DNA of 56,320 nt from Planctomycetota bacterium (GCA_038060895.1 JBBTCT010000032.1:1-56320), one strand, 5' to 3'. Shown: positions 46,582 to 47,235, counted from the stretch's first letter. Program-made: numbers and translations. The notes: generated by a model from the sequence alone, not told the origin.

Positions 46582-46695
46582 AAGGGACGGGACGACGCCG
46601 CACCCCCGCCCGGGGCTTACAAACCTCTCCAAAAGGAAAGCATCACAAGCCCCCGGCACTTGCGCGGCGACGTCCCGGCCCCTCGACCGTCCCTT
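46582..46695 (+). ncRNA. Y-RNA-like structured RNA, unit 1
   Basis: GGGACG-A-CGCCG (46589-600) pairs with CGGCG-A-CGTCCC (46665-76). C-rich loop, inner stem GGGGCTT/AAGCCCC, TACAAAC at 46618-24, 3' ACTTG. Confidence 0.65.
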
Positions 46696-46752
46696 TGACA
46701 ACCTGGCGACGTTTTGACGCAGCGCGTCAATCTACCCGGCAGCCGGAACGCC

Positions 46753-46911
46753 CGGGCAACGACTTCGCGGCTCCCCACCTCCGGAGCCTACAAACTGGTA
46801 AACATTCACCGTCAGGTGAAGATGGGGTTCGAATCCCCCCCACGCCTGGGGAGACAGGCACCACAACTGACCGTCAAGCTCCTGTAACTCGAGCCGCGAA
46901 GCCGTTCCCCG
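46753..46911 (+). ncRNA. Y-RNA-like structured RNA, unit 2 (contains a T-arm)
   Basis: CTTCGCGGCTC (46763-73) and GAGCCGCGAAG (46891-901) form a perfect 11-bp stem. Inner GGAGC/GCTCC, TACAAAC at 46789-95, GGGG-TTCGAAT-CCCC at 46824-38, 3' ACTCG. Confidence 0.75.
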
Positions 46912-46915
46912 AAGC

Positions 46916-47040
46916 GCTTCTCTCTGCTCCGCACCCCACCCCGCGAAGCCTACAAACCTCGTTCTCCCCCAGGGGGGAACACCAGTCACTGAAACTGACC
47001 CGTTTTCGAAGCTTCTCAAACTTGTGCGGAGCAGAAAGGC
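46916..47040 (+). ncRNA. Y-RNA-like structured RNA, unit 3
   Basis: TCTGCTCCGCAC (46923-34) and GTGCGGAGCAGA (47024-35) form a perfect 12-bp stem. Inner GAAGC/GCTTC, TACAAAC at 46951-57, 3' ACTTG. Confidence 0.72.
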
Positions 47041-47041
47041 G

Positions 47042-47235
47042 CGCAGCGAACGTCAGGGCGTCCCCCGACACGAGCTGCTTACAAACCGGACTCTTACTCC
47101 CGTGGTCGCGGGTTCGAATCCCGCCCGCTGCACCGGGCCCTCTTGTCCGAGAGGTCCCCGTGCAGCGGTAGCTCAGCGGCAGAGCACGATGCCTTACGTG
47201 GCAGGTCACACTAGGACGCCCTGACGCCCGCTGCG
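47042..47235 (+). ncRNA. YrlA-like Y RNA, unit 4, with a circularly permuted tRNA-like domain
   Basis: CGTCAGGGCGTCC (47051-63) and GGACGCCCTGACG (47214-26) form a perfect 13-bp stem. TACAAAC at 47080-86. T-arm 47108-24 precedes acceptor helix 47125-31/47162-68 and D-arm 47171-85. 3' ACTAG. Confidence 0.82.

Follow-up and report, generated by a model that had tools for sequence, protein, structure and literature searches.

An array of Y-RNA-like units with a conserved frame, probably partnered by a divergent Ro60-like protein, in a Planctomycetota bacterium

In a 56,320-nucleotide stretch of DNA from Planctomycetota bacterium (GCA_038060895.1 JBBTCT010000032.1:1-56320; the whole stretch is called the window, and positions are counted from its first letter), four units with a common structural frame lie in tandem on the plus strand at 46582-47237. 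The array ends 78 nt before the start of a same-strand gene (47315..48796) encoding a divergent Ro60/Rsr-like protein of 493 amino acids. We think it likely that the four units are non-coding RNAs of the Y RNA type, with a new protein-binding frame and the divergent Ro60 protein as their partner. Unit 1 (46582..46696) carries a short hairpin module in the frame, with TACAAAC at 46618-46624 and ACTTG at 46658-46662. Unit 2 (46758..46906) has TACAAAC at 46789 and ACTCG at 46887-46891; unit 3 (46919..47039), with a module of two small hairpins, has TACAAAC at 46951 and ACTTG at 47020-47024; unit 4 (47041..47237), with a permuted YrlA-type tRNA-like module, has TACAAAC at 47080 and ACTAG at 47210-47214. 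Because the units are only 11-60 nt apart, they are probably cut from one precursor.

The array had been proposed at 46582..47235 in an earlier reading made from the DNA alone (the sequence-only reading), and the unit limits found here are close to that span. In each of the four units we found the order of elements that it had described: outer stem, CCC-rich loop, inner stem ending in GC, Y-TACAAAC, insert, second strand of the inner stem starting with GC, ACT-N-G and second strand of the outer stem. The outer stems, put at 11-13 bp in that reading, were 11-15 bp long, and those of units 1 and 4 could be extended further. The insert varied from ~23 to 115 nt, and the sequence common to the units amounted to ~30 nt only. 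TACAAAC was present at the four positions claimed for it, and these were its sole copies on both strands of the window (4, versus 0.73 +/- 0.83 expected from shuffles). The longer motif GCYTACAAAC also occurred 4 times, all at 46615-47086 on the plus strand, versus 0.05 +/- 0.22 expected; 4 copies were reached in none of 100 shuffles. With full unit boundaries, minimum free energy folding recovered the frame in units 1-3 and gave the outer stem and the T arm in unit 4; the folding z-scores, computed with partly truncated boundaries, were -5.57, -0.71, -4.59 and -2.72 for units 1 to 4. AACTGACC is present in both unit 2 and unit 3, as had been noticed, but showed no sign of conservation in relatives and was treated as incidental. 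An orthologue of unit 1 was found in one related locus (L002), and orthologues of unit 3 in two (L001 and L002), with compensatory changes in the outer stem. Ahead of unit 1, directly past the stop codon of a 74-amino-acid gene, a strong G+C-rich stem-loop without a T tract was noticed by eye (46493-46528).

The protein encoded downstream of the array had been expected to be Ro-like, and its predicted structure has a Ro60 fold. The AlphaFold2 model (predicted local distance difference test, pLDDT, 84.9; predicted template modelling score, pTM, 0.76) shows a helical-repeat ring and a vWA domain with the DxSxS motif of a MIDAS (metal ion-dependent adhesion site). The top 12 Foldseek matches were Ro60/Rsr structures only, aligned over the full length (~520-566 alignment columns; E 1.5e-10 to 6.2e-8; template modelling (TM) score 0.55-0.67); they included X. 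laevis Ro with RNA, D. radiodurans Rsr and phiLo Ro60, and next in the list were isolated vWA domains. Residues D317, S319, S321, T379 and D403 were invariant in the 26 family sequences, and we take D317-x-S319-x-S321, T379 and D403 to be the MIDAS pattern of vWA domains. A profile of this 26-member family matched the Ro60 of Thermus phage phiLo (9l5y/9kop, E 7.7e-5) and human RO60 (9nen, E 1.5e-3). In Pfam, the protein matched no family at E <= 0.001 and had only faint vWA matches (residues 310-403); some homologues scored just under the cut-off of the 'Ro60 vWA domain' family PF25045 (27.1 bits versus 27.7). Its PHROGs match was phrog_850, 'RNA-binding protein', only.

We fetched 80 loci, each encoding a relative of the Ro60-like protein, drawn from 579 relatives among 605 pattern-match stretches in contigs representing one genome per species. 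In these loci, TACAAAC on the gene strand concentrated within a few hundred bases 5' of the gene, and on the 5' side a sharp consensus emerged when the sequences were anchored on TACAAAC. When the best complement of the 5' outer strand was sought within 330 nt, it lay directly 3' of ACT at 87 of the 106 candidate sites, ACT being no search criterion; the outer-stem partner of unit 4 was likewise identified by stem-complement search. We then compared 25 short units, chosen using outer-stem complementarity, in an alignment (A2) with both helices written by hand. In A2, 88.3% of the cells were paired, changes on both sides were found in 14 of the 18 pairs, and the covariation score was reached by none of 500 shuffles; slid controls were 31-47% paired. 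Because the selection of units used outer-stem complementarity, only the inner helix serves as a fully independent test of covariation in A2, and its five innermost pairs were nearly always paired, with AU/GC exchanges. A covariance model (R1) was built from A2, with units 1 and 3 of the window in the training set and unit 2 outside it. In a model-fitted alignment of 141 units (A3), which leans towards R1, 92.1% of the cells were paired (34-51% in slid controls) and 16 of the 17 pairs showed both-side changes, in agreement with the natural covariation read from the four units. The invariant or near-invariant unpaired letters in A3 were CCC, A and C in the 5' loop, AGC-N-UACA-W-AC, GCU and ACU-Y-G.

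As far as RNA structure is concerned, it is close to certain that the units belong to a real, conserved, structured RNA family that occurs in arrays; pairing and covariation were shown computationally in the alignments. Chance similarity, a simple repeat or a mobile element would have in its favour the repetition itself only. The pairs covary, the motif is strand-specific and tied to one gene family across phyla, and no more than about 30 nt is common to the units; this explanation, whose probability we set practically at nil, was refuted by the covariation, the strand-specific gene linkage and the motif count.

Searching with R1 near homologues of 47315..48796, a check suggested in the sequence-only reading, gave 228 matches at E <= 0.01 in 73 of the 80 loci, 226 of them on the gene strand. 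Among the 7 loci without a match, 3 have <=193 nt of upstream sequence. In 13 viral contigs (phage contigs of 23-572 kb), 33 matches were found in 12, every one on the gene strand. Same-strand co-location of the RNA units with the Ro-like gene was thus seen across phyla. In the window, R1 matches were confined to the four units: unit 1 at 46595-46670 (52.5 bits, E 3.6e-10) and unit 3 at 46926-47032 (66 bits, E 2.2e-13), both training-set units; unit 2, from outside the training set, at 46765-46899 (46.9 bits, E 7.7e-9); and unit 4 with 14.8 bits, mispaired because its insert is long. In the 5.4-Mb assembly to which the window belongs, R1 found units 1-3 only, among 150 candidates scored.

The position of the array bears on whether the units might be cis-acting leader elements, that is, attenuators or protein-binding operators controlling the Ro-like operon. 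The units do lie 5' of the gene, and a terminator-like hairpin (47266..47302, plus strand; 12 pairs, 8 of them G-C, in a consensus scan) with the T-rich tail TTTCATTTTC follows unit 4 and stands just ahead of the ribosome-binding site of that gene; a promoter scan found none. However, up to 7 units per locus were found at E <= 0.01, with differing modules, and several loci have units after the gene or after the gene for a ubiquitin-activating enzyme-like (E1) protein. In Abditibacteriota-type loci, the array lies 3' of the E1 gene, at the end of the cluster and on the same strand (L025:8357-9122, L038:7482-8060, L033:7508-7813). L011, with a unit at 5593-5687, is another example of a locus with units after the gene or the E1 gene. 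Orphan copies also exist elsewhere. Control of the operon in cis is therefore a very unlikely role for the units.

The modules carried by the frame differ from unit to unit. The module of unit 2 consists of UGG, a hairpin, a T-arm-like hairpin (GGGGTTCGAATCCCC) and a further hairpin, without a D arm; in Rfam, this unit had a sub-threshold Tymo_tRNA-like match (25.8 bits, cut-off 40). The same class of module was found in 11 units of A3, 10 with a T arm, in planctomycete, chloroflexus-type, cyanobacterial and deltaproteobacterial records. In unit 4, the order is V hairpin, T arm, closed 'acceptor' stem-loop and D arm. The Rfam YrlA model aligned with this unit at 47101-47188 over model positions 24-84 of 114, the tRNA-like core, and 16 like units from other loci and phyla aligned with it, each with a V hairpin, a T arm, a variable closed stem and a D arm in the same frame. 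A tRNA-like domain (T arm, closed acceptor-like stem, D arm) is thus present in unit 4; unit 2 has a T arm only, and units 1 and 3 are without such a domain. When 142 units (those of A3 plus unit 4 of the window) were sorted by a crude pattern count, 24 were in tRNA order, 15 in permuted order, 48 had a T arm only, 3 a D arm only and 52 neither arm. One frame thus holds payloads of several kinds; the modules fell into at least four classes, which supports the idea of variable modules on a constant frame. Many T-arm motifs were seen upstream in L031 and L036.

Modules in normal tRNA order raise the possibility that the frame is a processing platform, a leader/trailer pair cut by an enzyme of the RNase P, RNase III or RNase Z type to release a tRNA-like RNA or a tRNA, with the Ro-like protein acting only in chaperoning or quality control. 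Full-length Rfam tRNA matches do occur inside units of cyanobacterial and other loci (for example, 2181-2252 within the unit 2156-2280 of L048, where the 5' acceptor strand is supplied by the UACAUAC box and the CCA is encoded), tRNA gene arrays adjoin units in L019 and L067, and in M. smegmatis RNase P cuts YrlA, which gains CCA in vivo (PMC4201824). In the window, however, neither the Rfam tRNA model nor ARAGORN called a tRNA in 46582-47237, that is, in any of the four units, and units 1 and 3 hold small hairpins only. ARAGORN gave the embedded tRNA-order modules odd anticodons (ATT, AAG, ATG, ATC) or none, and the internal loop and the UACA box are conserved far beyond the needs of a cleavage duplex. 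We therefore regard a mere processing platform as unlikely. The tRNA gene arrays in L019:500-2950 and L067:1-1500 are ordinary ones directly 5' of Y-like units, with ~20 same-strand Rfam tRNA matches in L019.

We compared the array with known Ro60/Y RNA systems. Bacterial Y RNAs have been recognised by a 5'/3' stem with GNCGAAN0-1G, a YrlA tRNA-like domain and a location <=4 kb from Ro60 on its strand (Chen et al. 2014, PMC4201824). The units of the array lie less than 4 kb from a gene for a Ro60-fold protein, on the same strand, and have the long 5'/3' stem, of which both helices covary, and the variable module of the Y RNA class. Arrays of several Y RNAs 5' of rsr, with one RNA tRNA-like and a single precursor, are described for D. 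radiodurans, M. smegmatis and Salmonella (PMC4201824). Like YrlA/YrlB of Salmonella Typhimurium and Mycobacterium smegmatis (RF02553), the array stands beside a Ro60-type gene on its strand with several RNAs per locus; the ends are paired into a long stem, and a tRNA-like domain in permuted order (V, T, closed acceptor-like stem, D) is present in one RNA. In YrlA, a conserved UA/YUAY element stands ahead of the V region (PMC4201824; bioRxiv 10.1101/312249), and its likeness to the invariant N-UACA of the array is one of position only. Unlike YrlA, the array lacks GNCGAAN0-1G and has a different, longer frame of stem, internal loop and stem; only the tRNA-like core of unit 4 aligned to the YrlA model, some relatives have tRNA-order modules, and the partner protein has no Pfam TROVE match. 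In the Deinococcus radiodurans Yrn1/Yrn2 cluster upstream of rsr, some RNAs have a T arm and no full D arm, like unit 2 (PMC4201824), whereas Yrn1 and Yrn2 have a helix sequence common to animal Y RNAs that the array units do not. The nearest solved relative by sequence profile is phiLo Ro60 with Yrl1/Yrl2 (PMC12135203; PDB 9KOP, 9L5Y), which binds two upstream Y-like RNAs picked by a CGAA motif. These RNAs resemble the array units in lying upstream of the gene and in their stem-bulge-stem shape, but the CGAA motif is not enriched in our units, and the protein identity to 9l5y/9kop is 16% in the structural alignment. Metazoan Y RNAs (RF00019) are also modular, with a terminal stem bearing the Ro60 site and a variable part, but have no tRNA-like part and a different conserved helix.

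At gathering score, Rfam 15 gave nothing in the array and only tRNA in 15 related loci. The sequence-only reading had called the array a new Y-RNA class, and this stood in part: the frame matches no Rfam family at threshold, and the comparison with the Y RNA and YrlA models gave no full match, with YrlA sub-threshold for unit 4 only; on the other side, arrays 5' of rsr had already been described (PMC4201824), and unit 4 has a YrlA-type module. In working, the array is probably Y-RNA-like, and on these comparisons we file it as such rather than as a member of YrlA or RF00019. CGAA occurs just 5' of units 1, 3 and 4 of the window. CGAA near unit starts was rejected as the canonical motif; it was not conserved, being found in 37 of 138 units versus 33.6 +/- 4.8 in shuffles.

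In the reading that we prefer, a Y-RNA-type array serving the divergent Ro60 protein, the 5' and 3' ends of each RNA close into a long stem broken by a strongly conserved asymmetric internal loop (5' C-CC-N-A-(A)-C versus 3' R-ACU-Y-G). Past the loop come a second stem of ~8 bp closed by AGC/GCU and then the invariant N-UACA-W-AC box. The Ro60-like ring protein, whose gene lies just downstream on the same strand, may bind this frame, and the variable inner part, be it a small hairpin, a cloverleaf that has a T arm but lacks the D arm, a pair of hairpins or a YrlA-type tRNA mimic, may recruit different partners or substrates to the protein, as YrlA and Yrn1 do for Rsr. Transcription and processing of the units, binding of the frame by the protein and recruitment by the modules are steps that we infer. 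Because such RNAs and such a protein also occur together in many other bacteria and in huge phages, the array appears to represent an as yet undescribed branch of the system formed by Ro60 and Y RNAs.

Several results weigh against this reading. Pfam TROVE (PF05731) had no match to the 493-amino-acid protein at E <= 10, and no TROVE match was found anywhere in the 5.4-Mb, 86.5%-complete assembly; because the Ro60 fold was found yet TROVE did not match, the protein is, judging from its model, a divergent Ro60-fold protein that domain-based annotation misses. The canonical bacterial Ro site GNCGAAN0-1G was absent from all four window units and was found in 2 of 138 units, under the shuffle mean (3.5 +/- 1.8), which agrees with the remark in the sequence-only reading that the motif does not resemble the classical Ro site. 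Rfam Y_RNA (RF00019) had no match at E <= 10 in 46400-47400, and YrlA (RF02553) stayed below its cut-off (34.9 bits versus 69 for unit 4; no match for units 1-3). With filters off, no unit was found in L029, L045, L046 and L055, each with 4 kb of upstream sequence, or in the 8.9-kb contig of one genome (G104) that bears the Ro-like gene. Conversely, two orphan frame units lie away from any Ro-like gene (L100:5035-5102 in G116:C3; L101:5646-5766, minus strand, in G104:C148), and the genes for the Ro-like protein, the small protein, the OB-fold protein and the E1 are all missing from the ~5 kb around each. Some cyanobacterial units contain a complete tRNA-order module with encoded CCA, which suits release of a tRNA as well as tethering. 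Finally, the one RNA-library contig (metatranscriptome run X12; depth 2) covers 47193-47369, that is, the unit 4 tail and the gene start only, and could be DNA. This contig has the same sequence as the window through the terminator-like hairpin and into the Ro-like gene and then continues in unlike sequence; we rejected it as proof of unit transcription. By eye, the orphan unit of G104 stands directly 3' of a tRNA-like sequence.

Three further genes on the plus strand recur around the Ro-like gene. Upstream of the array, 46268..46492 encodes a 74-amino-acid protein ending in ...RPEAVFG-stop, a candidate ubiquitin-like protein. It had tblastn matches in 44 of the 80 loci; the homologues listed end in ...RPEAV(F/Y)G, with Gly followed by the stop in nearly all, and fold searches gave weak leads to the beta-grasp proteins Prok_Ub and BilA_UBL (TM 0.52-0.56). 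Downstream of the Ro-like gene, 48803..49627 encodes a 274-amino-acid protein of no known family, with OB-fold domain(s) and a C-terminal domain that contains Cys249, invariant among homologues; tblastn matches were found in 38 of the 80 loci. In its AlphaFold2 model (pLDDT 87.3), residues 85-147 resemble OB folds (Z 6-7) and residues 193-274 the FANCL central domain (Z 5.8). For this protein, Foldseek found nothing at E < 0.001, the PDB sequence profile nothing meaningful and the Atlas search no usable match. The third gene, 49826..50587, encodes a ThiF-type E1-like adenylyltransferase (Pfam ThiF, E 6.6e-33; NCBIfam ThiF families), with matches in 35 of the 80 loci; judging from homologues of ~215 amino acids, its true start is probably near 49949. 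PADLOC reported in the window this E1-like gene only, as a match to the E1 part of E1-E2 models. Farther upstream, the open reading frames (ORFs) 42237-44291 (684 amino acids) and 44383-46185 (600 amino acids) belong to no Pfam, NCBIfam or PADLOC family and are conserved in no loci other than the two closest, L001 and L002. In the Microcoleus locus L048, an ORF at 2754-3140, between two RNA units, resembles ribosomal protein bL12 (L7/L12) by eye.

A complex of the 74- and 274-amino-acid proteins was predicted with a score of 0.74, the best control scoring 0.00; the score expresses model confidence, and 116 of 157 solved complexes attained the mark applied to it, as did 2 of 215 mismatched pairs. 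Runs agreed in at least 89% of contacts, with a partner pLDDT of at least 85. The contact region spans residues 205-272 of the larger protein, and the tail of the small protein (residues 71-74) is placed against residues 248-253, around C249. In L052:3704-5506, the Gly-ending small protein is fused in frame with the Ro-like ORF, with no stop after ...RPEAVFG, either as a natural fusion or through an assembly or sequence error. The Gly end, the ThiF-type E1, the predicted complex at C249 and the fusion in L052 suggest that a ubiquitin-like pathway may be tied to the Ro-like particle.

With such genes nearby, the RNAs might instead be substrates or cofactors of the ubiquitin-like/E1/Cys-protein module (in thiolation or small-protein attachment, for example), the Ro-like protein being accessory. 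The recurrence of the three genes in 44, 35 and 38 loci and the placing of the small-protein tail by C249 in the predicted complex speak for this role. Yet about half of the RNA-bearing loci are without all three genes in the fetched flank (the Ro-like gene is present in all by construction), no thiolase or PP-loop domain was found in the family searches, and the E2-like reading of the 274-amino-acid protein rests on the Z score of 5.8 only. Such a role for the RNAs appears decidedly improbable. A wider proposal, possible but doubtful, is that a Ro60-like ribonucleoprotein is coupled to a ubiquitin-like pathway: the Gly-ended protein would be activated by the E1 and passed via Cys249 to the Ro-like particle, to the tRNA-like RNAs (for example, at their CCA ends) or to RNAs that the ring has captured, and the whole might act in RNA surveillance or as an anti-phage or counter-defence device in bacteria and huge phages.

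The Ro-like protein family is large: 3,069 proteins matched at E <= 0.001 among 8,000 candidates scored. The records of the 80 loci are labelled Planctomycetota, Chloroflexota, Cyanobacteria and Melainabacteria-type lineages, Abditibacteriota, Deltaproteobacteria and others, and the 595-kb huge-phage record LR756511.1 encodes a Ro-like protein of 58.5% identity. Among the carriers in these records are Gemmata sp. IIL30 (L009), Calothrix parasitica NIES-267 (L058), Abditibacteriota IAD-21 (L025/L033) and isolates of Microcoleus/Phormidium. Across 150 further genomes sampled evenly from the phylum, searched with strict filters and few candidates scored, R1 detected the RNA in 2 and the protein profile matched in 1; in this sample, the system is uncommon.

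In the literature searched, we found no description of the frame or of a cassette of Ro60, ubiquitin-like protein and E1, and an earlier mention in work outside that search is possible. Catalogues of bacterial Ro60 and Y RNAs start from TROVE-annotated proteins and the YrlA model (PMC4201824), and the present clade escapes both. With its units, a Ro-type ring would have a second RNA frame that is sharply defined. The genomic link between a Ro-like locus and a ubiquitin-like/E1 pair was unexpected. Here tRNA-like modules in permuted and in normal order share one frame, a fact of relevance to the published proposal that tRNA transcripts gave rise to YrlA (bioRxiv 10.1101/312249).

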